Below, in pieces: positions 1 to 61,066 of a stretch of DNA of 61,066 bases (positions within the stretch are counted from its first letter, which is position 1; each line of letters begins with the position of its first letter). The stretch spans positions 1 through 61,066 of IMG/VR virus record IMGVR_UViG_3300007734_000736, one strand, 5' to 3'. The position numbers and the translations under genes were made by a program. The notes beneath the pieces are model-generated. The model was not told where the DNA came from, searched no databases, and was given only the letters and a program-made list of their open reading frames with translations. The DNA comes from a virus (taxonomy: Duplodnaviria; Caudoviricetes).

Positions 1-127
1 GCGCCGTGTCGGTGAGTGATTACAGATGGGTGTACTGAGATGTATCCAGTCTTGCCTTTGTGCAGCTCTTTTTGACGCCAGAAGTACGTGCCTCCGCCTT
101 CGTAGTCGTCATTCAAAGCAAGCACCA
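1..127. repeat. 127-bp exact terminal overlap (copy 1); marks a circular assembly
   Basis: 1-127 is identical to 60940-61066 and lies inside a CDS that reads in frame across the junction. 127 is a common assembler k-mer size. Confidence 0.95.
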
Positions 128-2276
128 TAGAGATGGATGCACTATCGTGGTGAAGAGCCAAATGACCTTGGATAGCCTCATCGTATTTGATGATGAAGTT
201 TTCGCTTGACATGTTGGTCCACTCCTGTCCTTCTAGTGCCCATTTTTTAATGGCCACTGGATATACATACTCCTCAAGAATGCGCTGGTAGTGCTCCTGA
301 AGTCCGAGCTCATTGATGAGCATGTCACAGGTCGGATAGAAATAGTGACGATTGCGAGTCCAACGACCAGAGTCTTCCGCTTGCTGGATGAGCAAGCTAC
401 AGAACTCTTCCGTAAAGAGCGGGAACACAAATACGTCATTGATGGGCTCATCAACGATAAGCTCCCATTCTTTCGTGCGCGCAGAGTAGGTCACAAAGCG
501 CTGAACAAACTCCTCGTAGGAATAGTTAGATAGATTCATTTCAATTGATTTTGGTTGGTTTTCGGTAGTGGATGTCTCCTTGGTGCTGCTCTGACCGAAC
601 ACCGCTGGAGTTAGCGCAAGGGCCTTGCTGTCTTTCCAAATCCATGAAAGGTCTTTCCGAGGGTGGTCGCAGAACGTAGCACTCAAGAACTCGTCAAGCG
701 GAATGATTGACTTGTCAAAGTTCTGCTCAAGCAGCAAGCGACAGCCTTCGTTTGTGAGCATGTATGCGTGGGTGGTGTACGTGTAGTCTGGCTCTACCAC
801 GCTGTCCGAAATCCTTCTCTTTGGCTGGCGCACAAAGCTGTGGCCCAAGTACAGGATGGTCCATGGCTCTTGGATGGCATCAACCTCAATTGAATTGAAT
901 TGGCGCAGTACGGTGAAGTCCTCCTCCAGGATTAGGATTCGCTTGTATCCATTCTCATAGGCGTCCTTCCATACGCGCCAGTGAGACACGGCACAGCCAA
1001 TCTCTCCCGGAAGAACATCTCGGTTCCACCAGCTGTTGTCGCTGGCAATCTTCCAGTCCTTCCACACGTTGATGCCCGGGGGCATTAGCGAACCAGTATA
1101 GCCGTTTGTGGCATCAAAGATTGTCATGCCTCCAGACTTCACCCCAGAGCCAATGAATCGCTCCAAAAGCTCAAAACGAATCTGAGAGTCTGGGTTGAGT
1201 GATATGATGTAGGTATGGTCTACATCCAAATACTTGTAGTCTCCAGAGGATGGAGTCTTAATGGCGGTGAAGCCACTAAGCTGCTCAAGCGGTATATCAA
1301 CTGTATTTACCATTGTTTTTGATTGAAGTTTGTAAAATAGTGATTTCCATTCATTTACGACGTTGCTCCACCATCTGGTCATAACGTATTCATTTACACA
1401 TTTCCAACAGCTGATGTCGTAAGCAAATTCGCTTAGCGTATCTGCAAGTCCAGCTATTGGGTTGACAATGGGCCTGACCCTGTGTGCAAGCATTTCAATT
1501 GCCGTTATGCAATAAGTCTCATTGTAGCTTGTCGGATAATACCAGTGTTCCATTTGACTGAGCAGCTTATAGAGCTGCTCCGTCTCAAGGGAACCGTGGT
1601 ACTTGATTGACTTGTTGCGCAATACTCTGTCAAGGAAGTTGACATTGAAGTAGTCAACTCCATACTCTGGAGTGGCAATGTGCAGTGTTCCCGTTATCTT
1701 GCCAGACTCAAAGTCATCAAGCACTTTGCCTAGGCCTCTCTCCGCGTGAGACGTATACACATAGGAGTCCTTAATTTTTTTGACTGGATTATGGATTTTG
1801 TGCTGGTCTATGCCGTTTCCAATCACATCAACTTTCTCGGCATCTATGTTGTATCTAGATAGAAAGTCGTTCTTGTGCCATCTGGTAAGGCAAACGATTG
1901 AATCTGAGAGGTCAAAAGCTTCTTGTATGTCATGGTCGGACATCCGCTCTCCATTTAGCCACATGTACGGCTCCTCATTGTGAAGCCAGAATATGCGATG
2001 CTTTACGCTTGAGCCGTCAAACAGTTTGACGTAGTGTAGGTATCCAACGCCGATGAGTATGTCTATCGAATCAGGAAGCAAATCGCGCCGCTCAAACGGC
2101 GCGTATTGCACCGAATCATAGTTGCCCTCTAAGACGTTACCAAACACAAACACATTGTGTCCGGCCACCGACAGCTGATAAGACAAGTTGACCACGCATT
2201 GCTCAGTGCCACCTGGAATCTTTGTGCTCGAGTTCCATGGCTTCGCAAAGTAGCCAACATGAAAGACAATGTTCAT
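1..2276 (-). CDS. Three-domain fusion: GT4 glycosyltransferase + GT25 (COLGALT-like) glycosyltransferase + PLOD-like lysyl hydroxylase, 778 aa; continues at 60939..60879
   Basis: Hand translation from ATG 2276, which overlaps the upstream stop (ATGA). GT4 motifs: GGTE, HNEE, YPTSYNETYCITAIE (E-X7-E). GT25 motifs: GEIGCAVSHWRVWKD, ILILEED, WTILYLG, YTYTTHAY, IIPLDEFL. Hydroxylase motifs: DVFVFPLFTEEFC, YPTCD, LHHDSASIS, YEGGG, HP..ITHRHG..RFVLVSF. The frame matches ORF 60879..61064. Confidence 0.92.
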   Translation of the reverse strand, partial: MNIVFHVGYFAKPWNSSTKIPGGTEQCVVNLSYQLSVAGHNVFVFGNVLEGNYDSVQYAPFERRDLLPDSIDILIGVGYLHYVKLFDGSSVKHRIFWLHNEEPYMWLNGERMSDHDIQEAFDLSDSIVCLTRWHKNDFLSRYNIDAEKVDVIGNGIDQHKIHNPVKKIKDSYVYTSHAERGLGKVLDDFESGKITGTLHIATPEYGVDYFNVNFLDRVLRNKSIKYHGSLETEQLYKLLSQMEHWYYPTSYNETYCITAIEMLAHRVRPIVNPIAGLADTLSEFAYDISCWKCVNEYVMTRWWSNVVNEWKSLFYKLQSKTMVNTVDIPLEQLSGFTAIKTPSSGDYKYLDVDHTYIISLNPDSQIRFELLERFIGSGVKSGGMTIFDATNGYTGSLMPPGINVWKDWKIASDNSWWNRDVLPGEIGCAVSHWRVWKDAYENGYKRILILEEDFTVLRQFNSIEVDAIQEPWTILYLGHSFVRQPKRRISDSVVEPDYTYTTHAYMLTNEGCRLLLEQNFDKSIIPLDEFLSATFCDHPRKDLSWIWKDSKALALTPAVFGQSSTKETSTTENQPKSIEMNLSNYSYEEFVQRFVTYSARTKEWELIVDEPINDVFVFPLFTEEFCSLLIQQAEDSGRWTRNRHYFYPTCDMLINELGLQEHYQRILEEYVYPVAIKKWALEGQEWTNMSSENFIIKYDEAIQGHLALHHDSASISMVLALNDDYEGGGTYFWRQKELHKGKTGYISVHPSVITHRHG

Positions 2277-2833
2277 CGCTCGGTTGAGAAAAAGAACGTC
2301 TGGAAAAGCCTGCCGTTCTCCTTGCTGTTCCCAAAATAGTCAAGTGACGTATGGAATTGCTTACCCTGGTATAAAATCAAACGATTGTAGACGTTCCCAA
2401 CAGACGAAACTAACTCCCATTTGGTCATGTCTTGAGAGTCGTTATTCCACGTCCCCTTGCCTCCATTATCAGACCACATGAGACCAGTACTCTTATGTTT
2501 GAAGAATCCAGTACCGCTAGACAGTGGGGCGTTGGGAGTTAGGTATACCACGCCGGCCCACTTGGTGCCATGGTCAGCGTGAATCCAAGACCTATCTCTA
2601 GCTGTTGTTATCTGGAATGCGCCATTGTAGTCATCGGTTGGGAAGTAGTTAATCTTTCCCGCAAATGGCTCTACAATGTGCTGTAGCGTATCAAACACGC
2701 TTTGATTGAACTCTGGCTTAGTCCTTGCTCCTGGAAAATTCCCAGTAACAGGAAAATCCTGCGCTAGGGCAAACTCCCTAACCTCGTCTGGATTGTTGTA
2801 GAAACCATCTACAACGAACGCACTCATTACCAT
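2273..2833 (-). CDS. 2OG-Fe(II) oxygenase (DUF6445-like)
   Basis: WIHAD (HxD), WAGVVYL, YNRLILY..FH, GRLFQTFF. Confidence 0.8.
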   Translation of the reverse strand: MVMSAFVVDGFYNNPDEVREFALAQDFPVTGNFPGARTKPEFNQSVFDTLQHIVEPFAGKINYFPTDDYNGAFQITTARDRSWIHADHGTKWAGVVYLTPNAPLSSGTGFFKHKSTGLMWSDNGGKGTWNNDSQDMTKWELVSSVGNVYNRLILYQGKQFHTSLDYFGNSKENGRLFQTFFFSTER

Positions 2834-2852
2834 TCAATTAAGTCTTATGACT

Positions 2853-2860
2853 CAAATGTA
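2853..2860 (-). promoter_or_regulatory. Bacteroidota-type -7 box (TACATTTG) for the oxygenase/glycosyltransferase operon
   Basis: Matches TAnnTTTG about 20 nt upstream of ATG 2833. Confidence 0.65.
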
Positions 2861-2875
2861 CGTCACAGAGTTGAG

Positions 2876-2906
2876 GAAAACAAACGGGGCGCTTTTGGGC
2901 GCCCCG
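2876..2906 (-). terminator. Intrinsic terminator after the collagen gene
   Basis: CGGGGCGC/GCGCCCCG stem followed by TTTGTTTT on the - strand. Confidence 0.7.
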
Positions 2907-2912
2907 CATGTT

Positions 2913-5900
2913 TTAGGTCCAAATTGGGAAGTAGTAGTCTGTTCCTCCAACTCCAACCTTTCCCCATCCATACGTTGTTTTACCGGTATCGTCTGGGACC
3001 TCTGCGTTAAATCCACATGCCCCACATGTCACGCTAGACGCAGCGACGTTGACACTTCCAGTAGCTCCTTTCTGTCCTTTAGGACCTTGTGAGCCAGTGG
3101 GTCCAGTTGCGCCGGTTGGGCCAGTTGGGCCAGTTGGTCCAGCAGGTCCTTGAGCTCCAGTGTTACCTTTTGCTCCCTGGGGTCCAGTAGGACCAGCAGG
3201 TCCTTGAGGTCCCGTGGCTCCCTGAGCGCCAGTGTTGCCCTTCGCTCCCTGAGGTCCGGTTGGGCCAGTGGCTCCAGTATTTCCCTTCGCTCCCTGTGGT
3301 CCAGTTGGTCCGGTAGGTCCGGTAGGTCCAGTAGGACCAGTTGCTCCGGTGTTTCCTTTTGCTCCTTGAGGACCAGTGGGTCCGGCAGGTCCTTGAGGTC
3401 CAAGAGGGCCCGTAGGTCCGGTGGGACCCTGGGGTCCAGTAGCACCAGTTGCGCCTTTTTGGCCCTTTGTTCCTTGAGCTCCAGTTGGACCAGTGGGTCC
3501 GGCAGGTCCTTGAGGTCCAAGAGGGCCCGTAGGTCCGATGGGACCCTGGGGTCCAGTAGGTCCTTGCGCTCCAGTAACTCCCTTTTGCCCCTTTGCGCCT
3601 TGAGGTCCAGTAGCGCCAGTTGGGCCAGTGGGCCCAGTGGCTCCTTGAGGACCGGTTGGTCCCTGGGCTCCAGTTACACCTTTTTGACCCTTTGCTCCCT
3701 GGGGACCAGTAGGTCCAGTGGCTCCTTGAGGACCGGTTGGTCCCTGCGGTCCAGTCGGTCCTTGAGCTCCAGTAACTCCCTTCTGGCCTTTAGCGCCCTG
3801 GGGCCCAGTAGGCCCAGTAGGACCGGTAGGACCTTGGGCTCCTTGCGCTCCCTTTTGCCCCTGAGCACCCTGAGGACCAGTTGGTCCAGTTGCACCTTGG
3901 GGTCCAGCTGCTCCAGTGTTACCCTTGGCACCCTGGGGCCCGGTAGGTCCCGCGGGTCCTTGTGGCCCAAGAGGACCAGTAGGCCCAGTAGGACCTGTTG
4001 GCCCAGTTGCGCCTTGAGGTCCAGTTACACCTTTTTGACCTTTTGAGCCCTGAGCACCAGTGGCCCCCTGAGGTCCAGTAGGTCCGGTTGGTCCAGTAGC
4101 TCCAGTTGCACCTTTTTGACCCTTAGGTCCTTGGTCTCCAGTTGGACCCATGTCGCCCTTGTCTCCCTTTCCGCCTTTTTCTCCCTGAGCTCCAGTAGCA
4201 CCAGTGGCTCCCTGAGCACCAGTATTTCCCTTGGGGCCCTGGGGTCCAGTAGGACCAGTGGGCCCAGTGGCTCCTTGAGGACCAGTAGCACCAATCTCAC
4301 CCTTTTGTCCCTTCGGGCCCTGAGGTCCGGTTGGTCCAGTGGGACCAGTAGCGCCCTGCGGGCCAGTAGCACCTTGAGCACCGGTATCGCCCTTAGGACC
4401 CTGTGAGCCATCACGGCCTTTGTTTCCCTGGTCGCCCTTGGTTCCCTTGTCTCCAACTGGGCCAACAGGTCCGGTCGGACCAGTCGGGCCCGTAGCTCCT
4501 TGGGCACCAGTGTTTCCCTTCGCTCCCTGCGGACCAGTTGGTCCTTGGGCACCAGTATTACCCTTTGCTCCCTGCGGACCAGTTGGTCCCTGGGGACCAG
4601 TGGGCCCAATGTCTCCTTTGGGTCCCTGGGGACCAGTGGGTCCAACATCTCCCTTGGGGCCTTGGGCTCCAGTGGGTCCGGTAGGACCAGTAGGTCCAGT
4701 GGGTCCCTGGGCTCCAGTTACACCTTTTTGACCTTTTGCGCCCTGAGCACCAGTTGGGCCAGTGGGGCCAGTAGGACCGGTTGCGCCCTGTGGGCCTGTT
4801 GCGCCAGTGTCGCCTTTGGGCCCCTGTGAGCCATCACGGCCCTTTTGGCCTTGGTCTCCTTTAGTCCCCTTGTCTCCAGTAGGGCCGGTAGGACCAGTAG
4901 GACCGGTAGGCCCAGTAGCACCCTGGGGGCCAACATCACCTTTCGGACCTTGGGCACCAGTAGGACCAGTAGGTCCAGTGGGACCAGTGGCTCCCGTGGC
5001 ACCTTTTGTTCCCTGAGGGCCGGTAGGGCCGGTAGGTCCAGTGGGGCCCTGGGCTCCAGTATCACCCTTAGGCCCTTGAGAACCATCGCGGCCCTTATTG
5101 CCCTGGTCTCCCTTGTTCCCTTGAGGACCAGTTGGACCAGTAGGGCCGGTGGGTCCGGTAGCCCCTTGAGCACCAGTATCTCCTTTTGGACCAGTAGGAC
5201 CAGTAGGACCAGTGGGGCCAAGGTCTCCTTTAGGGCCCTGCGCTCCAGTTGGACCAGTGGGTCCAGTAGGACCAGTGGGGCCAAGGTCTCCTTTTGGTCC
5301 TTGGGCACCGGTATCGCCCTTAGGACCCTGAGAACCATCACGACCTTTTTGGCCCTGGTCTCCCTTGTTCCCTTGAGGACCAGTTGGACCAGTAGGACCA
5401 GTAGGCCCAGTGGCTCCTTGGGCTCCAGTATCTCCTTTTGGACCAGTAGGTCCGGTAGGACCAGTTGCTCCTTGGGGACCGGTATCGCCTTTGGGCCCCT
5501 GGGAGCCATCACGGCCTTTTTGACCTTGGTCGCCCTTATCGCCCTGTGGCCCGGTAGGTCCAGTGGGTCCTGTGGGGCCAGTAGGTCCAGTAGCACCTTG
5601 AGGACCGAGGTCTCCTTTAGGACCCCGGTCTCCTTTAGGGCCCTGGTCTCCTTTTGGTCCTTGAACTCCGTCTCGACCCTTTTCTCCTTTTAAGCCCTGT
5701 TCTCCTTGCGGTCCGGCAGGTCCAGTGGGGCCTGTGGGTCCTGTGGGCCCTTGAGGACCAAGGTCGCCCTTGGGGCCCTGGGCTCCAGTGTTGCCCTTGG
5801 GTCCAATGTCTCCTTGCGGTCCAGTTGCTCCAGTCGCACCTTTTTGACCCTGGTCTCCTTTGGGACCAACGTCTCCTTTGGGGCCTTGGTCTCCTTTAGG

Positions 5901-7142
5901 GCCTTGGTCTCCCTTAGGACCTTGGTCTCCTTTTGGTCCAGTGGCCCCATCACGACCTTTTTCTCCTTTTGAACCCTGGTAGCCCTTATCGCCCTGAGGT
6001 CCGGTTGGACCAGTGGGACCGGTAGGTCCGGTAGGTCCAGTTGCTCCAGTTACACCCTTTTGGCCCTGGTCTCCCTTGGGACCCTGGTCGCCTTTAGGAC
6101 CTTGAACCCCATCACGACCTTTTTCTCCTTTTGAGCCCTGGTCGCCCTTTTCTCCTTGAGGTCCGGCAGCGCCAGTATTTCCCTTTGCTCCGGTAGGACC
6201 CTGAGGACCAAGGCCTCCCTTAGGACCTTGAGGTCCAATGTCGCCCTTGGGACCAATGTCTCCTTGAGGGCCAGTTGCTCCTTTAGGACCAGTAGCTCCA
6301 TCACGACCTTTTTCACCCTTTCCTCCCTGGTCTCCCTTATCTCCCTGAGGCCCGGTGGGTCCAGTGGGACCAGTGGCACCTTGGGGGCCAAGGTCTCCTT
6401 TGGGACCTTGAGCCCCGGTGTCCCCCTTGGGACCTTGAATTCCAGTATCTCCTTTCTGTCCTTTAGGACCTTGTGAGCCAGTGGGTCCAGTTGCGCCGGT
6501 TGGGCCAGTTGGGCCAGTTGGGCCAGTTGGTCCAGCAGGCCCTTGAGCTCCAGTGTTACCTTTTGCTCCCTGTGGTCCCTGAGGCCCTGTTGGTCCGGTA
6601 GGTCCAGCGGGTCCTTGAGCTCCAGTGTTACCTTTTGCTCCCTTGGGTCCTTGAGGACCAGTTGGTCCAGTAGGTCCAAGCGGTCCCTCTCTTCCTTTCT
6701 CGCCCTTCGAGCCTTGAGGTCCAGTTGGTCCAGTTGGACCAGCGGGCCCTTGAGGTCCTGTGGCTCCCTGAGCTCCGGTATTACCCTTCGCTCCCTGAGG
6801 TCCGGTTGGGCCAGTGGCTCCAGTATTTCCCTTCGCTCCCTGTGCTCCAGTTGGTCCGGTAGGTCCGGTAGGTCCAGTAGGACCAGTTGCTCCGGTGTTT
6901 CCTTTTGCTCCTTGAGGACCAGTGGGTCCGGCAGGTCCTTGACTTCCAGTATCTCCCTTTGGGCCAGAAGGACCAGCAGGACCAGTAGCTCCGGGGGCAC
7001 CCTTGTCTCCTTTTGCAGAAGCACCTCCAGATGCACCCTTAGCTCCCTTGGTTCCTTTTGAACCAGGGAGCTGCTGAACTCCATTATTGGTAATCTCTAC
7101 AGAGGATGGGCCAGGAAGGTTGATGTCAATTTCTAATGCCAT
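2913..7142 (-). CDS. Very long collagen-like fibre protein (1409 aa)
   Basis: About 446 Gly-X-Y triplets with one Gly->Ser break near the N-terminus; 26-aa N-terminal and ~45-aa C-terminal non-helical ends. Confidence 0.97.
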
Positions 7143-7143
7143 A

Positions 7144-7527
7144 CTAGTTTACAGTAATATCTTGAGTAATAGTAAATTGACCATACATGTAGGTAGTAAC
7201 TACGTCTGGGTTCGGGGTTGGATTAGTAGCTTGAATTTCATAAACAAACGTACCAGCGTTTACCAACATATTAGGGGCACTAATAGTAACAGTAAGAACC
7301 CCAAGAGCTGTTCCGGTTACAGTGATGTTTGAACTTGCAATTACAATAGGACCAGTGTCATATTCACGGACTTCCATCTTCCAGGTGAACACGCTAAGGT
7401 CTACGGCCGTACCGTTTGCGTCCTTGATGGTGGCAATCAAAACAAATGTGTCTCCGCGCCAACAAACGATGTCTACGCGAGTGGCAATACTTACGACTGC
7501 TGTAGGGGTTGTATCACAACACGACAT
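7144..7527 (-). CDS. Small beta-sandwich virion protein (BppU/LtfC-like fibre adaptor candidate)
   Basis: [28 protein letters not shown] pattern; stop codon lies 1 bp upstream of the collagen start. Confidence 0.55.
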
Positions 7528-7536
7528 AGCGCAAAT

Positions 7537-9975
7537 TTACTGGTTAGTTAGTGCATCCATTAGACCCGAGTTGAAGGCTGGAGCCTCTTCGCCTTTGCGC
7601 TGAGAAATCAATTTAGACTGAGCTTCAGCCTGTTTGTTGATTCGAGCGTCCTTTCTGTTTTCCTTCATCGCATCAGTCATTTCTTGTGTCTGACCACGAA
7701 CAGCTTGAGACTCGACCATACCCTGATTTTTTAGCTGTTGAAGCTCCATCTCATACGAGTATTGAAGCTGCATTAACTGGGCTTTTGCTTCGGTTTCAAG
7801 TTGGATTTTTTGAGCTTCAAGTTGTGCCTTCAACTGCTCTGCTTGCATCGTAGACTGAGCAGCAACTTGAGCAGCCTGTGCATTAGCTTCAGCTTGGAAC
7901 TGAGCCTGCTGCTGAGCTTCATCCATGCGCTGCTTCATGCGCTTTTTGCGGCGAACAACCAGAAGGCGCTCCGCTTGCTCTGGGTCGCGGAGCTGACGGA
8001 TAGCAATAGCGTCCTCAAGGTCAATCTCTTTTTGAGATAGGGCCATGTTGATGTTTTGCTCCAGGTAGATTTTGGAGCGGTCGTCCATTTCTCCCATTAC
8101 GATGACGCCAAAGTTGTACATCGAGAGGTTATCAAACGAACTCAGGATGGCCATGTTGGTCTCCCCAATGGCGTTGGTGTAAACCTTGTAGATGATGCTC
8201 TTGGGCGGGATTACCTGCAAGCAGCGCACGATGTCCTCACAGACCTTCTTGTAAAGGACCTGTGCGGCGTGAGTGATGTCGTAGGTTGCGTTGTTTGAAG
8301 CGGCAATGGCCTGCTCGCGAACGCCCACAAGCGCATCTGCCTTTGGGGTGCTTGCGTCAACTACCTCATTGATTCCCGTTGCGTCGCGAATCATGCGCAG
8401 GTAGTGGTTGTACAATGCGACCAACTCTTGGATGTTGCGGATGGCATTGCCAATCTCCCGCACCGGCGGGTTTTGGAACCCGCCTTCGGGATTCTTAGAG
8501 CGGTAGTAGAATACACCAGTTTGCTCGTAGATGTCCTGAATCTCCAGAGGCTGCAGTTCTCCACCCCGTCCGAGCTGTACGTTCTCCAGGCCTTCGATAT
8601 CGATGATGAGTCCATCAGGCTTAGCCTTGGCAATGGACTGCTGAATCTTCAAGTGAGTGATTTGAAGCATGTCTCCAAATCCAATCACACTTGACACCAT
8701 TGACTTCGGAATCATACCGCGAAGGTTCGTGGCTACGCAAGAGTATGAAAGGCGAGCGCGAGCAATATCATGTACGTTCTTCGGGATGTTCTTCTGAACT
8801 CCGTAGTTGTACATCAGCTCAGTACCAATTACGTACACGCCACCGTAGACGGTAGCGTTCTTCATGTACACAGCCTCGCGGTCGAATACTGATTGCTGCG
8901 GGGCGTTGTAGCTGTGGCCTTTGTAGTAGAACCCGATGTTGCCAAACTTGGACTCTTTCTTTTCGAACACGATGTCGTCTACCGACATGAATTCAAACTC
9001 CATGATTTGGACCTTGTACTCGTCGTATCCGTAGCGGTAGCGGTTGCTGATGGTCTCGTAGTTGTAGCCTTGGGTAGCGTAGCGCAGCGGGTCATTTCCG
9101 TAACGGTTCATTACCGTTTGGGCAATCTGTTGGTACTGCTCTTCGGTAAACTGATTTCCTGCAAGACGCTTGAGCTCCATGATGGTTACCGTACGGAAGT
9201 GACCAGCGTAGGTCAGGTCCGCCATGTTGGGGTCGTCCGTGTAGTTGTGGATGAAGTATGCCGGGTCTACGTACTGCTCACGAATGCCGTAGTTAGGGTC
9301 ATTGGTGCGCTTGGTAATGGCGATGCCGCACGTAACGAGGTCCTCAACGCAGCGGCGGTAGATGCCGTCGTCGAAGTCGTTCCACGTAAGAGTCATTTCC
9401 GTGGCCAGCTGTGCAGCAATCTCTGCATCAGTTTTCACGTTCGTGTCCAGGAAGATTTCCGTTTCCTCGGGAGTGTCCGGAAGCGAGTCCGGGTCAACGC
9501 GCACGTTCAAGCCAAGAGCCTTTGCCTCTTGGAGCATCTCCTTGTTTTCGATGTGAAGGATGGTGGCGTTCTTCTTTTTGTCTTTCTCGCTGCGTGACAA
9601 CGGGTCAACAGCCTGTACTTGTGGGTAGGGCTTGCGAGACAGAATCTTGTTTACGACGATGCGAACAAACTTGGGAATGATGGGAACTGGAGTGTAGTCC
9701 AGCGTAAGCATCGTTCCGTCTCCGTTGTTGGCATCCAGTGAGCTCAAGATTTGCCGATAGATGGACGTGTCTTGAGTTCCTTGAGCATAGTCTCGGTTGT
9801 TCTGCATTTCATTGAACCGACGACCATACAATGAATTGTTGTAGTCAACCCCAATCCACTGAGCATACATGGCCTTAGCATACTGAAGGCCATAGGATTG
9901 CGACATCTTTTCTTCCGTACTCGCTAGCGGGTCCGGGAACGTAGATTGACCTTTTGCTGTATAATCTCTTTGCAT
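7537..9975 (-). CDS. Portal protein
   Basis: 812 aa next to TerL; YAQGTQD, PVPIIPKFV, IRDATGINE motifs; Q-rich coiled-coil C-terminus. Confidence 0.88.
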   Translation of the reverse strand: MQRDYTAKGQSTFPDPLASTEEKMSQSYGLQYAKAMYAQWIGVDYNNSLYGRRFNEMQNNRDYAQGTQDTSIYRQILSSLDANNGDGTMLTLDYTPVPIIPKFVRIVVNKILSRKPYPQVQAVDPLSRSEKDKKKNATILHIENKEMLQEAKALGLNVRVDPDSLPDTPEETEIFLDTNVKTDAEIAAQLATEMTLTWNDFDDGIYRRCVEDLVTCGIAITKRTNDPNYGIREQYVDPAYFIHNYTDDPNMADLTYAGHFRTVTIMELKRLAGNQFTEEQYQQIAQTVMNRYGNDPLRYATQGYNYETISNRYRYGYDEYKVQIMEFEFMSVDDIVFEKKESKFGNIGFYYKGHSYNAPQQSVFDREAVYMKNATVYGGVYVIGTELMYNYGVQKNIPKNVHDIARARLSYSCVATNLRGMIPKSMVSSVIGFGDMLQITHLKIQQSIAKAKPDGLIIDIEGLENVQLGRGGELQPLEIQDIYEQTGVFYYRSKNPEGGFQNPPVREIGNAIRNIQELVALYNHYLRMIRDATGINEVVDASTPKADALVGVREQAIAASNNATYDITHAAQVLYKKVCEDIVRCLQVIPPKSIIYKVYTNAIGETNMAILSSFDNLSMYNFGVIVMGEMDDRSKIYLEQNINMALSQKEIDLEDAIAIRQLRDPEQAERLLVVRRKKRMKQRMDEAQQQAQFQAEANAQAAQVAAQSTMQAEQLKAQLEAQKIQLETEAKAQLMQLQYSYEMELQQLKNQGMVESQAVRGQTQEMTDAMKENRKDARINKQAEAQSKLISQRKGEEAPAFNSGLMDALTNQ

Positions 9976-10014
9976 AATCCACTATGGGCTAATATGCAAA
10001 TATACTTATTTGAT

Positions 10015-14615: not shown

Positions 14616-14644
14616 ATTAGTACTTTTGAAACAAAGATACTGAT

Positions 14645-15112: not shown

Positions 15113-15305
15113 CCATCCGCTCTTTGGTATCGCCTGGTTTATCGTGAGTTACCACGCGAAATGGCGCCTCAAGGCTTGCGTTTGGGTGCTTGACAAACTT
15201 GCCGGAGTGCTTCATTAGGTAGAAGCGACCCTTTCCGTCGTTCATCCAGTGGTAGCCCTCCGGGGCCTTCACCATTACGTTCTTACTGAGCTTCTTGAGT
15301 TCCAT
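15078..15305 (-). CDS. Small basic hypothetical protein
   Basis: ORF overlapping the methyltransferase stop. Confidence 0.6.
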   Translation of the reverse strand: MELKKLSKNVMVKAPEGYHWMNDGKGRFYLMKHSGKFVKHPNASLEAPFRVVTHDKPGDTKERMATLALRKVKKS

Positions 15306-15897
15306 CTTTTCGGGTGATTTCTAGAATCATATCGTCAGAACGGTTCTTGTTCTTACGAAAGTCAAATCTACGGAACTCCGTGGAGAATTCTGGGCTGACT
15401 TCTCGCTCCAGCTTCTCGAACCAGTCGTAGTTCTGGATGTCTTCGATGACCAGTTTGCCCCCTGGCTTGACTTTCGGTAGCCATTTTTGGATGGCTACCT
15501 TCATGCTCTCGATGCTGTGGGGTCCGTCGTCGATGATGTAGTCGTAAAAGCTGTCGGGGTACTCGGCAATGACCGGATTCGCGTATCCGTCTTGAATGCG
15601 TATCTCTACATTAGGGTATTCGCGGGTTCCGCGCATGTCATTGTAGTGCGAAGGCACCCCTTCATAGATGTCAAGTCCAACAATCTTGGCGTTTGGGAAC
15701 CATTCGCTCCACAGCATGAGGCTTCCGCCCCACTGCACCCCTAATTCGAGTACATTTTGCACGGTTTCGCGCTTGTCCTTGAACTCGTGGGTGTAGTATC
15801 CCTTGATGTAGTCGTGGTCAGCCCCTTTGTCGGAGGTATAGAAGCCCGGGCGCCCAGGATAGGCGCACACAGAGCGGTACATTTCGTCTAATGTCAT
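15283..15897 (-). CDS. Class I SAM-dependent methyltransferase (sugar/small-molecule O-methyltransferase-like)
   Basis: VLELGVQWGGS, GLDI, DYIIDDGPH, LPKVKPGGKLVIEDI. Confidence 0.85.
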   Translation of the reverse strand: MTLDEMYRSVCAYPGRPGFYTSDKGADHDYIKGYYTHEFKDKRETVQNVLELGVQWGGSLMLWSEWFPNAKIVGLDIYEGVPSHYNDMRGTREYPNVEIRIQDGYANPVIAEYPDSFYDYIIDDGPHSIESMKVAIQKWLPKVKPGGKLVIEDIQNYDWFEKLEREVSPEFSTEFRRFDFRKNKNRSDDMILEITRKDGTQEAQ

Positions 15898-18801: not shown

Positions 18802-18858
18802 AGCTATCTCAGGGAAACAAAGTTAGTATTTTTACCCTCGAACATAACCCCTGAAAAA

Positions 18859-33539: not shown

Positions 33540-33877
33540 CACTTTACGACTTACACAAGTTCTTTTCCAAGGACGACGAGCAAGAGATGGAGCAGTTCAT
33601 GCGCATCGCTATGGCTCGATTGCAAACGACATACAAATTCAAGCCTCAGCGGGTAGCTGTTGCGGCCAAGATGTATTCGCAATGGAAAAAGCGAAAAGAC
33701 CATGGACATGCCAAAGCGTAGTAGTATGTTCTACCAACAGTACCAAATCCGGTACGATTCAAATTCAAATCAATGGAAACTAACATGGGACGGGAATCCA
33801 ATTATGAGCGGAACAAAAGAGTATCTAGAATACTATCTGAGTCTGCTATCGAACAACGGGAACATAATGTTCTAGAC

Positions 33878-34237
33878 ATGGACATAGCTGTTGCCGTCTA
33901 TGGAACCCTCAAAAGCGGCTATGGCAACAACTTTCTGCTGGAAGATGCAACACTGGTGGGCAAGGGCCGAACCACCGATAAATACCCCCTAATCATCCGA
34001 CAAGGAGGACTTCCGTTCCTTCTCAACAAGAAGAACATTGGATACAACGTGGAGGTCGAGGTATACCTTGTGGACAAGAAGATTCTGCGCCGCTTGGACA
34101 TCCTTGAGGGGCATCCGGAATGGTATTGCCGCCGAGAGATAAGCGTGACCATTGATGAGATTGATACTCCGATTAGGGCGTGGACATACTTCGGCCCATC
34201 TGAATACGACAACCTGACCTACCATGAGCGATACTAA
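33878..34237 (+). CDS. Gamma-glutamylcyclotransferase (AIG2-like)
   Basis: VAVYGTLKSG..N, EVYLVD, LDILEG, Y.R. Confidence 0.88.
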   Translation: MDIAVAVYGTLKSGYGNNFLLEDATLVGKGRTTDKYPLIIRQGGLPFLLNKKNIGYNVEVEVYLVDKKILRRLDILEGHPEWYCRREISVTIDEIDTPIRAWTYFGPSEYDNLTYHERY

Positions 34238-38465: not shown

Positions 38466-38580
38466 TGCCGACCGACTTCACAACACTATACGCAAATTCA
38501 AACGAGACATCGACGGCGAATTCGATATGATTCGCGCGGCGCTGCTGGAATACTACGATGATAACATTGATATTCCTTGA
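38353..38580 (+). CDS. Hypothetical protein
   Basis: Helical ORF overlapping the resolvase tail. Confidence 0.55.
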   Translation: MDKEELSRTYFLATSRISNAATSLYESLHDEAGSPRVDADRLHNTIRKFKRDIDGEFDMIRAALLEYYDDNIDIP

Positions 38581-39523
38581 TGGCCTAAACGGCATCAACT
38601 ACCACCGCCTAATGACTCCCTTTCTCCGCCTCAAAGCGGAGGAGGGAGTCAACATCCATTTCTTCTCCAGCTTTGACGAGCTGAAGCAGTTTGACATGAC
38701 CAAGGTTGGGTCTGTTGTGGTGTCTCGGCGCTGCACGGTGTCCAACTATGCGGAGTTCAAGAAGTGGCTCAAGAAATACAAGGTGAAGCTCATCCTGGAT
38801 AACGACGACTTCTGGGAGCTGCCAGATGATAACCCAGCTCAGGAGATTTACAAGAAGCAGGTGTCGCGCGAGATTCTAGCCAGCATCCGTATCGCAGACG
38901 AGATATGGACGCCATCTCCCACGTTGGCGCACAAGATGAAGAAGGTAAACAAAAATATACCTTACCGAATCATCCCCAACACCATCTACGAGAAAGAAGA
39001 GCAATGGGTCAACCAAGAGAAGGACCCCAACCCGAAAGGGCTTGTGCGGTTTGGATATACCGGTGCCAACGGACACCGCAACGACATCCTGTCCATGGGT
39101 ATGACCTTTGAGAACCATGAGCTCTACTGCATGAACCTGATGGACTATCCAGACATCATGCGAGCCAAGTACACGATGTACCCACTTGACATCCACCTAT
39201 ATGCGCAGCTCTACCGACACTTTGATGTGTCGTTAGCGCCGCTGCTGAACAATAAGTTCAACCGCTGCAAGTCCGAGCTGAAGGTGGTAGAAGCTGGCTA
39301 TACCAAGACAGCCATTATCGCATCGAACACTACGCCATACAAGGAGACCATCATTCACAACAAGACAGGAATCCTCTGCTCCAGTCCTGACGACTGGAGA
39401 AAGGCCGTGAACGAAATGACGTTGGAGAAGGCAAAGAATCTTGCCGGGGAGCTATATGAGTTCTGCAAGAAGAACTACGACATCTCCCAAATCAACAAGG
39501 AGCGACTCAAGGGCTTAGTATAG
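38558..39523 (+). CDS. Glycosyltransferase (GT-B, GT4-like)
   Basis: G..YHRL..P, DNDD, DVSLAPL..NKFNRCKSELKVVEAG. Confidence 0.85.
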   Translation: MITLIFLDGLNGINYHRLMTPFLRLKAEEGVNIHFFSSFDELKQFDMTKVGSVVVSRRCTVSNYAEFKKWLKKYKVKLILDNDDFWELPDDNPAQEIYKKQVSREILASIRIADEIWTPSPTLAHKMKKVNKNIPYRIIPNTIYEKEEQWVNQEKDPNPKGLVRFGYTGANGHRNDILSMGMTFENHELYCMNLMDYPDIMRAKYTMYPLDIHLYAQLYRHFDVSLAPLLNNKFNRCKSELKVVEAGYTKTAIIASNTTPYKETIIHNKTGILCSSPDDWRKAVNEMTLEKAKNLAGELYEFCKKNYDISQINKERLKGLV

Positions 39524-49451: not shown

Positions 49452-52400
49452 TTACTGACCTTGTTGGTTGTGTAGATTAGACTTGGAGTATATCAAGTTG
49501 ATTGCGTACAACTCGTGAGGAGTGGTAAGAGAGTTTGTAAGCGTAACCTGAAGGTAGTAGTCGCGTAACGGGTCGCCTTCAATGGATGGCGTAGCTACCA
49601 ATACCACCACGTCGTTTTGCACCAGACCAGAGGCCGTAGCATTACAGGTTATCTGCTTCTCTCCGCTCTTGCTGTTTGCACGGTAGCCCAAAGGCTCCAG
49701 GCGGTTGCTTGCCACATTGAGCTTGTAGAGCGCCGTAGTGCTTCCAACCGGGAAAGGAATGTTGTTGATTGCGTTCTTGAAGTTGATTACACTACCGCTC
49801 GCAGAGTTGACCACGCCGAGAGAGAAGAACTGGGAAGTTCCGTCGACCGACGTAATGTTAGCTGTTGAAGTAGTGGACACGGCCCCCATCGTTGAGTCCT
49901 GGTGGATTGGCGCGTAGTAGAACCCTTCTTTGTCCTGCCAGATGCTGCTAGCCAGTGCAGAGGTTTGATTTGAGTTGTTCAAAGTACAAGACCATGCGCC
50001 GCTATTTCCCTCAAGGCTGATTGCCTCGTAGACCTTAATCATCGAAGGGTTGAAATTTGAAATGACCTCTACGATACTTGGGGCAGCCGTACCATAGAAG
50101 GTGTTTCTGGGTACGGTTGGATTGTGCTCGTAAATGATTCCATTCTTGAACGTGTAGAGCGCGTCAGACAGCGATACAATCTGCTCAGGGATGTATGAAT
50201 AACGAGTGCTCCAGAAGTTCTCACGAATGTCGTACGCGATGGTGAAAGCTGGAAGCGTTTCGGTTGTTTGGGATATAACGCCAGTTGACTCTGCCGTATC
50301 GGTAAGCGTCAGCTGGGTAGTTTGCTGGCTGAAAGTAGACAGCATGAACGCGTTGAACGAAGAGTTTGCGACGGCTACCGGAACAGCAGCGGTTAGTGCT
50401 CCGTTTTGGTATGCTGGAGAATAGCTCTCAGCCAAAGCCACGATTGGCTGATTGGTCAACTGATTGGTAATGATGAGTCCAGCACCAGAGGTATCAAAGT
50501 CATCTTGGTTCACGTCAAAGTCGCGAGGGTCGCTCTCAAAGTTGAACGTAAGGCTATCGTCGTACACCGGTACAGAATTTATCACCGTGGCTGCGCTGTT
50601 AGTAGAGCCAAATCCGATTGCCTCATTTCCAGTAAGCGTATCGTCAACAAGTATCTGAGAAGTATACAGGGCCTCTGCGCTGATGATGTACTCCGTGTTC
50701 TCTTTGTCTATGCCGCCAATGTATCGGCGGTTCGTTGCAGTAGTCTCAGTAGAGTACAGATTGCTCTCAAAGAACGCATCTACCAGCTGTTCGCTGATGA
50801 CCTCAATGCCAGAATCAAAGCCAATGCGGCAAACCTTAGCGGCAAGAGCGTCAATGAAGAATACATAGCCTCGGTACGAAGCAACAGACTCTGGGTTGTT
50901 GTTGACGCCAAATTCTCCAGTGTAGTATTTGACCGGACCAAGAATGAGGTTTGATGCCACAAGAGACTCTCCAACGTCTGCGGTTATCACATTGCGGCCT
51001 ACCGGGATTATTCCAGCACGGCGCTCATGAATGACGTACATCAACTCGTTATATGGGACAAGACTACGGATTGAGCCGTAGTCGTATGCCAGGTCTTTGT
51101 AGTTAATCTTTGTGAGGTTAAACGAAGAAAGCCCTAACGTAGTGTTCTCCGTGTTGAATGGGTCAGACCACGTGATTGAGCCAACTCGCTTGTATGTCCT
51201 TGCGTCTGGAAGGAACGGGAATGAGCGACCAAGAGACTGGTAATCAGACTCATAGAAGTCACTAACTCGGTAGTCCTCAACAAAGTCAACAATGTTGTTC
51301 TGTGCAAATGCAATCTGGGTATTGCTTGGAATGCTTTGGTTGGTTGCTCCAGCACCAACCAAAAGAGTACGCAATCTGAAATACGAGTCTCCATTGTTGA
51401 GCAACAGAACCGCATCGGGGTTTTGAACTGTGAAGTTCGCGGTAGATGGGACCGTGAAGTTTGCAACCGTCACCCCATAGAACAGATAATTGAATCCGGT
51501 TTCTGCCGTACTTGGTGTTACGTTGCCAACCGTTATTTGTTTGCCGGAGCCATCTTGAATGATGTCTCCTTTGTATATCTGAGCAGCAGCATACCCGGTA
51601 ACCTGGTTGCCAGACTGCGCAGTAATCTTGACGCTAGTGGTTAGCGTGGTGCGCTCTGAATCATGAACTCCACCAGTTATGCCCAGGTTTGTTCCAATTT
51701 CGTAGTAAAGAAGCGTGTCAAACGAGCGATTCTCTCGGTATATCTCAATGACGCATTCATCATTCCAGTTTGTTGAACCATTGCTAATGCTATCCGCATT
51801 GAATCCGACAGCCTTAGGGTTATCTTCAATCACCAAGAATGTTCCAGTCGTATTTTGAACTGCAGCTCGAGAACTTCTGTCTAGCAATGGGTTCAGTAGC
51901 TGGTCATCTATTAAGTTCACCGTCTTGACAACCTTGAACACGTATTGAGTTTTTTGGTTGTTGCTATACCTTACAATGCGCACCTTATCGCCTACCGCAA
52001 ATCCATATTCAATAAGTGCCCCAAACTGGTTTGTGTATGAGTTCTCTTTGCTCTGAAGCGTATTGAGCGAAAGATATATGCTTTGGTTTGCACCAAATGA
52101 ACCTTGGTTCGACTGGTCGTTGAATGCCAAGTATGCACCGCCAACACTGTACTGGACTTTGTTGATGATGGAGCCCTGTCCAGCATATACGGGCGAGTAT
52201 CGCTTAGCCCAAACCGGAGGAGTATGCTTGATGCGCATTACCACGTTTGCAAAGCCGTCTAAGTCGTTTTGAGAGCTTCTGTCGTTGGTATGAAGGATAT
52301 CTGCAGCGCCCACCTTTTGAACGCCTCCAGCGCGGCCTCGGTCGTCAAAATAGACGATTCCAAGCTGGTGCATGGAGCCAGACTTGAAACAGCGATTGCC

Positions 52401-55990: not shown

Positions 55991-56023
55991 AGTCTTTGGC
56001 TTTGAAGCAAATATACAAAAAGA

Positions 56024-59499: not shown

Positions 59500-59551
59500 A
59501 GTAAATTTCTTTTAATGGTTTATGCAAATGTATAGAAGTGTGCGCGTTACA

Positions 59552-60279: not shown

Positions 60280-60879
60280 CTACTTATAGCTATTCCCCCC
60301 CGCCCAAAGGACCAAGGACTCACGCACTCCGCTAGTTACAGGAGTAACTCTGTGTAACAAATATGATGGAAAAATTATCACCGTGCCCTGGGCTTTTGAA
60401 GCTGTTGCCTCGCCAGAACCTGAGCGAATCTCTAGTTCTCCGCCCTGGTAATCATTTGGGTCGCTAAGCTGAACCACGAGAGAAATCTTACGAAAGGCAA
60501 GCTCATTAGGCCCAATGTCCATGTGCCAATTGTAGAAGCCTTTCTCAGTTGCCTCGTACTGGGTGTACTGAATTGAATCTTGAATGGACTGCAGGTCGAA
60601 CTGCCACATGTTATCATTGGCGATAGTCATGTAGTTCATCAGTCGGTCGTACAGCCAACCGTGGGGGTTGGCTCGGGGAATCCACTTGATGTTTGACTTA
60701 CGCACTTGATTGAGCGCTTCGTCTTCAAAATTGGCAGCTACTTGCCCACGAGAGATGGGAATTACGCTTGCCTCCTTCTTGATTTTGGCAATCTCCTCCT
60801 TGTTGAAAGCAGAGTCAAAGTAGTACCAGCCAGTCATATCGCGGCCTTTGCCGCGGTCAAATGTTGGATTGAGGTTCAT
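60280..60879 (-). CDS. 2OG-Fe(II) oxygenase (PKHD/prolyl-hydroxylase-like)
   Basis: RKS, YNWHMD, RKISL.VQLS, YQGGEL, FPSYLLHRVTPVTSGVR.SLV.W. Confidence 0.9.
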   Translation of the reverse strand: MNLNPTFDRGKGRDMTGWYYFDSAFNKEEIAKIKKEASVIPISRGQVAANFEDEALNQVRKSNIKWIPRANPHGWLYDRLMNYMTIANDNMWQFDLQSIQDSIQYTQYEATEKGFYNWHMDIGPNELAFRKISLVVQLSDPNDYQGGELEIRSGSGEATASKAQGTVIIFPSYLLHRVTPVTSGVRESLVLWAGGNSYK

Positions 60880-61066
60880 TATTTATTTCGGTTACAGAAT
60901 GAAACAAGTACAAAGCGCTTACCCTTGGTTACTGCACGTGCGCCGTGTCGGTGAGTGATTACAGATGGGTGTACTGAGATGTATCCAGTCTTGCCTTTGT
61001 GCAGCTCTTTTTGACGCCAGAAGTACGTGCCTCCGCCTTCGTAGTCGTCATTCAAAGCAAGCACCA
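60879..61066 (-). CDS. 3' end of the GT4-GT25-lysyl hydroxylase fusion (continues from 1..2276)
   Basis: In frame across the 127-bp overlap; TAATG overlap with the next gene. Confidence 0.92.
   Translation of the reverse strand, partial: VLALNDDYEGGGTYFWRQKELHKGKTGYISVHPSVITHRHGARAVTKGKRFVLVSFCNRNK
60940..61066. repeat. 127-bp terminal overlap (copy 2)
   Basis: Identical to 1-127. Confidence 0.95.

Follow-up and report, generated by a model that had tools for sequence, protein, structure and literature searches.

A predicted collagen lysyl hydroxylase-glycosyltransferase fusion beside a giant collagen gene in an uncultured marine short-tailed phage

O-glycosylation of hydroxylysine in collagen is regarded as an animal trait. 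In a 2022 review, most prokaryotic collagens are described as lacking hydroxylation or glycosylation (PMC8968730). The virus record IMGVR_UViG_3300007734_000736 of IMG/VR, analyzed here over its whole 61,066-nucleotide stretch (hereafter the window), raises the question of whether a bacteriophage can modify collagen in the animal manner: its minus strand carries the gene of a very large collagen-like protein and, behind it, a gene fusing two glycosyltransferase (GT) domains, of the GT4 and GT25 families, to a lysyl hydroxylase (LH) domain. The source is an uncultured marine short-tailed phage. We consider it probable, judging from homology, modeled fold, and gene order, that the fusion hydroxylates and O-glycosylates lysines of the phage's own collagen fiber. 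Bacteriophages would then hold a whole collagen-modifying enzyme set, in one protein and beside its likely substrate.

The fusion gene has to be read across the ends of the record. An exact terminal repeat, of the kind that assemblers leave on circular contigs, occupies positions 1-127 and 60940-61066 of the window. Since the window ends are identical over 127 nt, we treat the contig as circular, with a length of ~60,939 bp; genes crossing the junction are split in the linear record. Thus, the first 758 residues of the fusion lie at 1-2276 on the minus strand and run off base 1, while its last 61 residues lie at 60879-61066 on the same strand (open reading frame [ORF] 60879-61064), 41 of these residues repeating the window start through the 127-nt overlap. 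Once joined, the protein counts 778 amino acids (aa) (758 plus about 20 across the junction), its intact relatives having 775 to 781 aa. It comprises a GT4 domain (residues ~1-320), a linker, a GT25 domain (~350-545), and an LH domain (~585 to the end). The Pfam domains Glyco_transf_4 (34.8 bits; cut-off, 28.5), Glyco_transf_25 (46.9 bits; cut-off, 24), and OGFOD2-like were each matched above their cut-off.

In a sequence search against the PDB, residues 597-757 matched human LH3/PLOD3 (E 1.3e-17) and the LH domain of mimivirus L230 (1.3e-15), and residues 415-542 matched COLGALT1 (1.6e-15); no enzyme family other than LH3, L230, and COLGALT1 was returned for the fusion in this search. In a further PDB sequence search, COLGALT1 was found at E 2.7e-16 and aligned over chain residues 360-496, its catalytic GT2 domain. 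Moreover, with the relative L001, which is 70% identical and has a complete C terminus, the LH alignment reached the ends of both LH3 and L230 (1.8e-21 each). The kinship with PLOD, COLGALT, and L230 that an earlier note on this DNA had guessed is therefore borne out by the PDB search, and the fold comparison with the same enzymes that it had proposed leads to the same three proteins. We modeled P0002, a full-length relative that is 90% identical to the window fusion overall and near-identical over GT25 and LH. For this model (predicted local distance difference test [pLDDT], 86.9), the top Foldseek matches were full-length LH3, COLGALT1, and L230. Its LH domain superposed on that of L230 (6ax6_B) with a TM score of 0.83 and a root mean square deviation of 2.0 Å over 197 columns, at 30% identity. 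The fold matches of the N-terminal domain were retaining GT4 enzymes, among them an alpha-1,2-glucosyltransferase as well as MshA, tll1591, PimA, and BshA, these four with TM scores to the target of 0.6 to 0.68.

The catalytic residues are conserved as well. In the LH domain, H709, D711, H755/H757, and R767, corresponding to the Fe triad and the 2-oxoglutarate-binding Arg, are invariant in 29 aligned sequences and have their counterparts at the matching positions of LH3 and L230. The distal His and the Arg are carried by the C-terminal part that wraps around the junction, where R767, S772, and F773 are invariant in the alignment. Guo et al. reportedly found in 2018 that an Fe2+-stabilized dimer is needed for LH activity. 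In the GT25 domain, the phage GEIGC aligns with GELGC of COLGALT1, on the uridine-holding helix, and LEED aligns with FEDD, the Mn2+ motif; E451, D453, G424, and G427 are invariant and C428 is nearly so, the middle residue of the acidic motif being Glu, not Asp, while its two metal-binding carboxylates are retained. COLGALT1 itself is described as having an unusual Glu-Asp-Asp Mn2+ motif and a Gly/Gly/Cys uridine-binding helix (PMC12003778). Counted over the 120 best relatives of the fusion, 83 of which are long forms, the HHD triad is kept in 120 and the acidic motif in 116. The EX7E motif, which defines GT4, is present in an EX7E-like form in 80 of the 83 long forms. GT25 is joined to LH in all 120 relatives, and the three-domain GT4-GT25-LH form occurs in 83 of them. 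Altogether, the fusion agrees with known LH and GT25 enzymes in every feature of sequence and fold that we examined, and it has a GT4 domain instead of the LH3-type GT.

The presumed substrate is encoded at 7142-2913 on the minus strand. This 1409-aa protein (Pfam Collagen, E 3.4e-198) holds 445 Gly-X-Y triplets, of which 440 form a single unbroken run (residues 45-1364), with a 26-aa N-terminal segment and a 45-aa C-terminal tip on its flanks. A collagen helix rises by ~0.29 nm per residue, so that the fiber would be ~380 nm long if its 1320 helical residues all follow this rise. Of the 445 triplets, the Y position is held by Thr in 181, Gln in 112, Lys in 101, and Pro in 1; the X position is held by Pro in 216, Ala in 95, Asp in 46, and Lys in none, all 101 lysines thus being at Y. 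The same bias appears in 37 distinct collagens linked to relatives of the fusion, in which Lys makes up 16 to 66% of Y and 0 to 1% of X, with Arg at Y near zero, and in which the other residues vary widely (Pro at X, 0 to 43%; Thr at Y, 0 to 37%; Gln at Y, 0 to 36%). Hence, a constant enzyme accompanies a constant residue, Lys at Y. In bacterial collagens, according to a review, the dominant Y residue is usually Thr (PMC8968730).

Among the relatives, the N terminus of the collagen is conserved, whereas unrelated modules take the place of its C-terminal domain. The fiber is therefore modular at its distal end, and this combination of a conserved N terminus with a swapped tip, the pattern expected of a fiber held to the virion by its N terminus, makes a virion-attached, receptor-seeking fiber the most likely form of the modified product. 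By eye, the collagen C termini of the relatives L023, L029, L038, and L041 resemble an endosialidase-type intramolecular chaperone. Some relatives carry a lectin-like Laminin_G_3 protein between the collagen and the enzymes (L025, 8299-9210; L041, 8860-9777).

Does the collagen gene accompany the enzyme beyond this one contig? A profile search of IMG/VR yielded at least 357 tblastn-confirmed relatives of the fusion, and the best 80 loci were fetched. A collagen-like ORF was found directly upstream on the same strand in 51 of the 80 loci (one of which, L047, has only 18 triplets) and downstream in none. Fifteen of the 29 collagen-less loci have less than 3 kb of upstream sequence; among loci with at least 3 kb, 50 of 64 have an adjacent collagen and 14 do not. 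When grouped at 70% identity, the enzymes fall into 10 clusters, 7 with an adjacent collagen, 1 uninformative, and 2 without. The co-occurrence test that the earlier note had put forward is thus positive, both in the informative IMG/VR loci and in the unrelated cultured phages described below. Most clusters share the order portal, ~130-aa protein, collagen, enzymes, scaffold, and capsid. In the split form found in L102, the collagen is followed by a PF13640 oxygenase, a separate GT4 gene, and then GT25-LH.

In the window, the minus-strand order starting from the portal gene (9975-7537; phrog_6547, E 1e-182) is a 127-aa ORF (7527-7144), the stop of which lies 1 nt from the collagen start, then the collagen gene, a 79-nt spacer, the gene of a 186-aa DUF6445 protein (2833-2273), the fusion, the gene of a 199-aa PF13640 oxygenase (60879-60280), two small basic proteins of 106 and 129 aa (60261-59552; phrog_7595 and phrog_14910), the scaffold, and the major capsid protein. 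The ORF positions confirm where the earlier note had placed the collagen, the oxygenases, and the junction-crossing fusion, and the overlapping start and stop codons that it had reported for the last three enzyme genes are present (ATGA at 2276/2273 and TAATG at 60881-60877).

The same association is found in cultured phages. A search of 50,697 deposited phage records returned 52 with a match to the LH domain. Coverage of the domain reaches 74% or more in only 13 of these records, which belong to 6 phages; S-PRM1, S-CAM9, CRP-6, S-8S53/55/56, and one single-virus amplicon match strongly, and S-T4 matches weakly. The cyanomyoviruses S-PRM1, S-CAM9, and S-8S55 encode a tail fiber (1824 to 1830 aa, as measured in S-PRM1 and S-CAM9) with a 59-triplet run bearing 22 to 23 Lys at Y; behind it come genes for a 124-aa protein, for two PF13640 oxygenases, and for a 614-aa enzyme. 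The latter combines a COLGALT1-like domain (E 7e-23), an LH3-GT/R699-like domain (4e-33/3e-31), and an L230-like LH domain (1e-9). Roseophage CRP-6 encodes a "putative tail fiber" (gp60) that has 97 triplets with 26 Lys at Y; next come a tail assembly chaperone and then gp58 (589 aa), which has the same domain build as the 614-aa enzyme. The adjacent fiber is the sole collagen in the genomes of CRP-6, S-PRM1, and S-CAM9. The GT25 and LH domains of these enzymes, which are annotated as "hypothetical" or "2OG-Fe(II) oxygenase," are homologous to those of the window (about 30% identity) and likewise lie downstream of a collagen-bearing fiber gene. They differ in their middle domain, an LH3/R699-type GT (GT_PLOD; E 9e-46 in S-PRM1 and 4.5e-28 in CRP-6 gp58), with no GT4, and their collagen is a 59- to 97-triplet segment of a tail fiber, whereas that of the window is a 440-triplet rod. 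CRP-6 has been described as short-tailed (PMC6918029); its record lists a putative tape measure protein, and here it stands for no more than a lineage whose structural module differs. In a term search of the CRP-6 paper, none of the words collagen, hydroxylase, and glycosyltransferase was found (PMC6918029).

Relatives without the cassette provide the converse case. By portal, the nearest deposited relatives of the window are MW202828 and Flavobacterium phage elemoF, in which the portal is directly followed by the scaffold and the capsid. Neither has a fusion homologue or a collagen over the cut-off, and the homologue of the 127-aa protein is also absent from these cassette-less relatives (MW202828 and the Flavobacterium elemo phage). 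Homologues of the 106- and 129-aa proteins come after the enzymes in most podovirus loci, and their two genes complete the block inserted between portal and scaffold. This joint absence argues that the whole block, from the 127-aa to the 129-aa gene, behaves as one inserted module.

We propose that this block is a self-contained fiber-making module producing a very long trimeric collagen fiber. In the host cytoplasm, before the chains zip, the LH domain would hydroxylate Y-position Lys (X-Lys-Gly) with Fe2+, 2-oxoglutarate, and O2. The GT25 domain, as the counterpart of the COLGALT1 catalytic domain, would then add a first hexose to the new hydroxyl with inversion, and the GT4 domain, a predicted retaining enzyme of GT-B fold, would add a second sugar. 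GT4 would here fill the slot held by the LH3/R699-type glucosyltransferase domain in the animal, mimivirus, cyanophage, and roseophage enzymes. Its position in place of the LH3-type GT, and its occurrence as a separate gene beside GT25-LH in L102, support the role of second-sugar transferase. In the animal pathway, as described, Lys is hydroxylated, a first sugar is added with inversion, and a second is added with retention (PMC12003778); the structural relatives of the phage GT4 domain are retaining enzymes too. The stand-alone oxygenases of the block probably hydroxylate other abundant residues, with the PF13640 protein acting on X-position Pro.

Known systems provide parallels. Mimivirus L230 has been characterized as a collagen lysyl hydroxylase/hydroxylysyl glucosyltransferase, made of a GLT25D1-like transferase and a C-terminal LH, that acts on Lys-rich, Pro-poor mimivirus collagens (PMC9614988). 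L230 (LH structures, PDB 6ax6 and 9nev), together with R699, thus offers the likeness of a viral GT25-type/LH fusion serving the virus's own collagen, the activity of the phage enzyme being predicted. The phage differs in that its host is a bacterium and not an amoeba, in the extra N-terminal GT4 (GT-B) domain of its fusion, and in the operon that sets the gene directly behind the presumed substrate; the activity of L230 has been shown, whereas the phage enzyme is known from sequence. Human LH3/PLOD3 and COLGALT1/GLT25D1 (PDB 6fxk, 8zgc, and 9evj) carry out the same three steps that we predict for the phage, in which one polypeptide would replace two proteins. COLGALT1 GT1 and the LH3 accessory domain are absent from the phage enzyme, and its retaining step would rely on a GT4 GT-B domain instead of the LH3 GT-A domain, all of this without an endoplasmic reticulum, a signal peptide context, or animal chaperones. 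In bacteria, Iyer, Abhiman, de Souza, and Aravind predicted in 2010 that collagen-like/tail-collar proteins of prokaryotes are substrates of co-encoded 2-oxoglutarate dioxygenases, the hydroxyl being then sulfated (PMC2938197). Some of the phage cassettes recall these systems through a sulfotransferase or an FkbM methyltransferase; the bacterial systems, however, use other dioxygenase families and have no PLOD-type LH or GT25. Full-text literature searches, which did not extend to subscription journals, brought up no account of a bacteriophage that hydroxylates lysines or glycosylates hydroxylysine. New in this study are the three-domain GT4-GT25-LH form, its setting in the head-gene block of podoviruses, the match to cultured carriers, and the control given by joint absence.

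Several observations weigh against hydroxylation and glycosylation of the collagen lysines. The proposal rests on homology and gene order, and Pfam GT_PLOD, the domain of LH3/R699-type GTs, has no match in the window fusion. The sugars cannot be named from homology, since L230 adds Glc where animals use Gal. Preference of Lys for Y and of acidic residues for X is a general habit of collagens, and the position of the lysines by itself therefore proves little. The 51 linked loci are not 51 independent events, as they belong mostly to one podovirus family with conserved synteny. Moreover, in the two collagen-less clusters, no collagen lies closer than 10 kb at any of the 14 informative loci. Pfam Collagen is matched elsewhere in four of five whole records of these clusters, in frames with Lys at 15 to 53% of Y and none at X, which is weak evidence because Pfam Collagen also matches 4 of 14 control bacterial genomes. 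Finally, GT4-LH proteins of 556 to 565 aa are encoded among housekeeping genes on bacterial chromosomes, in an Aliishimia metagenome-assembled genome (MAG), Granulosicoccaceae MAGs, and a Chromatiales symbiont (bacterial contigs L097, 9992-11662; L099, 9983-11680; and L101, 10001-11680). Their hosts are marine Alpha- and Gammaproteobacteria, their neighbors include RNase P, mnmC-like, GNAT, and aminotransferase genes, and no collagen gene lies within 10 kb. LH-type enzymes can thus have other substrates, and that of the chromosomal GT4-LH proteins may be a non-collagen protein; these chromosomal genes are a case of the kind that the earlier note had named as refuting.

The composition of the window collagen adds a further point against our proposal, which is also the starting point of the alternative that fares best. 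Thr is the commonest Y residue (181 of 445, with 107 GPT triplets), and one or both transferases might place their sugars on Thr of the G-P-T/G-A-T repeats, as in BclA, or on another virion protein, Lys hydroxylation still occurring on the collagen. The Bacillus exosporium collagen BclA has a G-P-T repeat in which Thr is said to be the glycosylated residue, and GT4 enzymes, to judge from the titles of the fold matches, have very diverse acceptors. BclA is indeed a glycosylated bacterial collagen (PMC8968730). Nevertheless, we hold this alternative to be unlikely: the joining of GT25 to LH in all 120 best relatives and the retention of COLGALT1's special Mn2+ motif speak for Lys, many collagens linked to a full GT4-GT25-LH have only 0 to 5% Thr at Y with Lys there at 30 to 66%, and in the cyanophages and CRP-6 the GT4 slot is held by an LH3/R699-type domain, the known acceptor of which is Gal-hydroxylysine.

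Alternatively, the enzymes could be auxiliary, acting on host or other phage molecules (lipopolysaccharide [LPS], capsule sugars, Lys of host proteins, or DNA) and merely traveling with the fiber gene. This we regard as very unlikely, considering that the closest solved relatives are collagen enzymes and not LPS transferases or nucleic acid oxygenases, that the collagen linkage recurs in unrelated phage types, that enzymes and collagen came or went jointly when MW202828 and the elemo phages are taken for comparison, and that the enzyme genes sit inside a late structural operon with overlapping stop and start codons. It draws on the Pfam label of GT25, an "LPS biosynthesis protein" family, on the GT4-LH relatives found among bacterial housekeeping genes without collagen, on the 14 informative loci without an adjacent collagen, and on the much wider distribution of DUF6445, with 2307 clusters as opposed to 197 for the fusion. 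Hardly credible, lastly, is a hydroxylysine serving mainly for fiber cross-linking or stabilization with inactive or structural GT domains, for although animal hydroxylysines also serve cross-linking (PMC8968730) and COLGALT1 (GT1) and LH3 (accessory domain) each carry a noncatalytic GT-like domain (PMC12003778), the phage GT25 is the counterpart of the catalytic GT2 of COLGALT1 with its metal and uridine residues kept, the EX7E-like motif of GT4 persists in 80 of 83 long forms, and no lysyl oxidase-like gene turned up among 34 other window proteins in the Pfam scan.

Modification of the collagen lysines by the fusion thus remains the interpretation that we favor, and it would have several implications. 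It would mean a route to modified collagen in the bacterial cytoplasm, relevant to recombinant collagen, and a new decoration of phage fibers that may affect host recognition, stickiness, and protease resistance. It would also supply material on the origin of the animal PLOD and COLGALT enzymes. As some carriers are cultured phages that grow on laboratory Synechococcus and Roseobacter strains, the idea is directly testable by mass spectrometry. A far wider hypothesis, which is attractive and which we consider doubtful as a whole, is that unrelated tailed phages run a complete animal-style collagen maturation in the bacterial cytoplasm. There would be one oxygenase per abundant residue (LH for Lys, PF13640 for X-position Pro, and DUF6445 for Y-position Gln or another residue) and interchangeable second-sugar modules (GT4 or LH3-type GT), with sulfotransferase and methyltransferase add-ons tuning the glycan coat of a fiber several hundred nanometers long, and the PLOD-COLGALT chemistry would have first arisen in the phage and bacterial world, not in animals.

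Regarding the stand-alone oxygenases, the DUF6445 protein (Pfam DUF6445, E 2.1e-12) had been labeled a 2-oxoglutarate oxygenase in the earlier note. H85, D87, H161, and R175 are invariant in 20 sequences, and the AlphaFold model (pLDDT, 80.4) gave OGFOD1, PHD2, and a bacterial prolyl 4-hydroxylase as the best Foldseek matches (E about 1e-5). The invariant HxD...H...R pattern, together with these fold matches, shows that the label was right, and on this basis of sequence and model we assign the protein as a prolyl-hydroxylase-like 2-oxoglutarate/Fe(II) oxygenase; a PDB sequence search with it gave no match. That DUF6445 is a collagen-specific enzyme was ruled out, its family counting 2307 clusters against 197 for the fusion. 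The further 2-oxoglutarate oxygenase that had been noted at 60879-60280 matches Pfam 2OG-FeII_Oxy_3 (PF13640; E 2.8e-14; 54.3 bits; cut-off, 27), and 3dkq and PiuC, both hydroxylases of the PKHD type, came out as its closest relatives in the PDB; it is a candidate prolyl hydroxylase for X-position Pro.

Among the linked collagens, PF13640 tends to accompany X-position Pro and DUF6445 tends to accompany Y-position Gln. These tendencies were examined on a tree of 29 nonidentical fusions, obtained from 49 loci with at least 80 triplets after dropping 20 identical proteins. For PF13640 against X-position Pro at 5% or more, there were four independent pairs, two to four of them in the same direction and none opposite (sign test, P of 0.125 to 0.5); for DUF6445 against Y-position Gln at 10% or more, there were two independent pairs, both in the same direction (P of 0.5). 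With so few contrasts, these associations serve as leads only.

The accessory genes vary from one cassette to another and include DUF6445, PF13640, a sulfotransferase (L052), an FkbM methyltransferase (L013), Laminin_G_3, and DUF7936. The oxygenases are replaced in some cassettes by the FkbM-type methyltransferase (L013, 12578-13126) and by DUF7936 (L013, 8871-9215; L020, 8049-8393). The metagenomic protein P0002, near-identical to the window fusion (3-2276, minus strand) over GT25/LH, is clearly more divergent over GT4, and this confinement of divergence mainly to one domain suggests, from the sequences compared, recombination at the domain linker inside the gene.

The 127-aa protein upstream of the collagen matches phrog_1084 and found no match in Pfam or in a PDB sequence search. 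The ESM Atlas clusters closest to it consist of hypothetical proteins from viruses; in one cluster, 11% of the members carry LtfC/BppU-N, which we note as no more than a lead. Almost every podovirus locus has a homologue of it in front of the collagen gene, and the protein may be the anchor or a partner of the fiber. The role of head-tail adaptor that it had been given before did not hold and is ruled out, as a SU10_adaptor homologue sits at 55990-55238 on the minus strand. A 1677-aa protein with a crAss-phage muzzle C-terminal domain is encoded at 49452-54485 (minus strand). Together, the adaptor homologue and the muzzle-domain protein indicate a tail resembling that of SU10- or crAss-like podoviruses.

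Between the collagen gene and the enzymes, the earlier note had claimed a terminator and a new promoter. The former is supported by a strong intrinsic-terminator-like hairpin directly after the collagen stop (2907-2884, minus strand), with nine pairs, eight of them G-C, and then a T run. The fold energy of the intergenic stretch is -32.8 kcal/mol, and a hairpin with a different stem sequence occurs at the equivalent place in L001, L003, L006, and L009. As to the promoter, none of the sigma-70 type was found between the hairpin and the DUF6445 gene, and what stands there instead is a TAnnTTTG motif (2853-2860, minus strand), a candidate -7 element 20 nt upstream of the DUF6445 start that is kept in place in L001, L003, L006, L009, and L020. 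We take TAnnTTTG to be the -7 promoter element of Bacteroidota. Of the 34 copies in the window, 11 precede a start codon by 5 to 35 nt on the coding strand, whereas 2000 random placements gave 0.85 such copies on average and never more than 5, and five scrambled motifs gave 0 to 2; only this position relative to starts is unusual, the whole-window count of 34 not being above chance (28.5 expected). Start-associated examples are found on the minus strand at 2853-2860, 7532-7539, 9997-10004, 14632-14639, 18818-18825, 56008-56015, and 59525-59532 and on the plus strand at 14621-14628. With a terminator after the collagen gene and a promoter motif following, structural protein would be made in large amounts and the enzymes in small ones.

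The nearest cultured portal relatives, at 27 to 31% identity, infect Flavobacterium, Cellulophaga, and Tenacibaculum. Together with the placement of TAnnTTTG, these relatives on phages of Flavobacteriia indicate that the host is probably a member of the Bacteroidota, although the 50.7% G+C of the contig is high for Flavobacteriaceae.

Outside the cassette, the window encodes a sulfotransferase (PF03567; 35278-35928, plus strand), a further GT4-like glycosyltransferase (38558-39523, plus strand), and a methyltransferase (15283-15897, minus strand). L052 and other relatives have a sulfotransferase from this Pfam family directly behind the fusion, with only 20% identity to that of the window. The fiber or its sugars may be modified further. 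A gamma-glutamyl cyclotransferase-like (GGACT/AIG2) protein is encoded at 33773-34237 on the plus strand, within the early or replication region.

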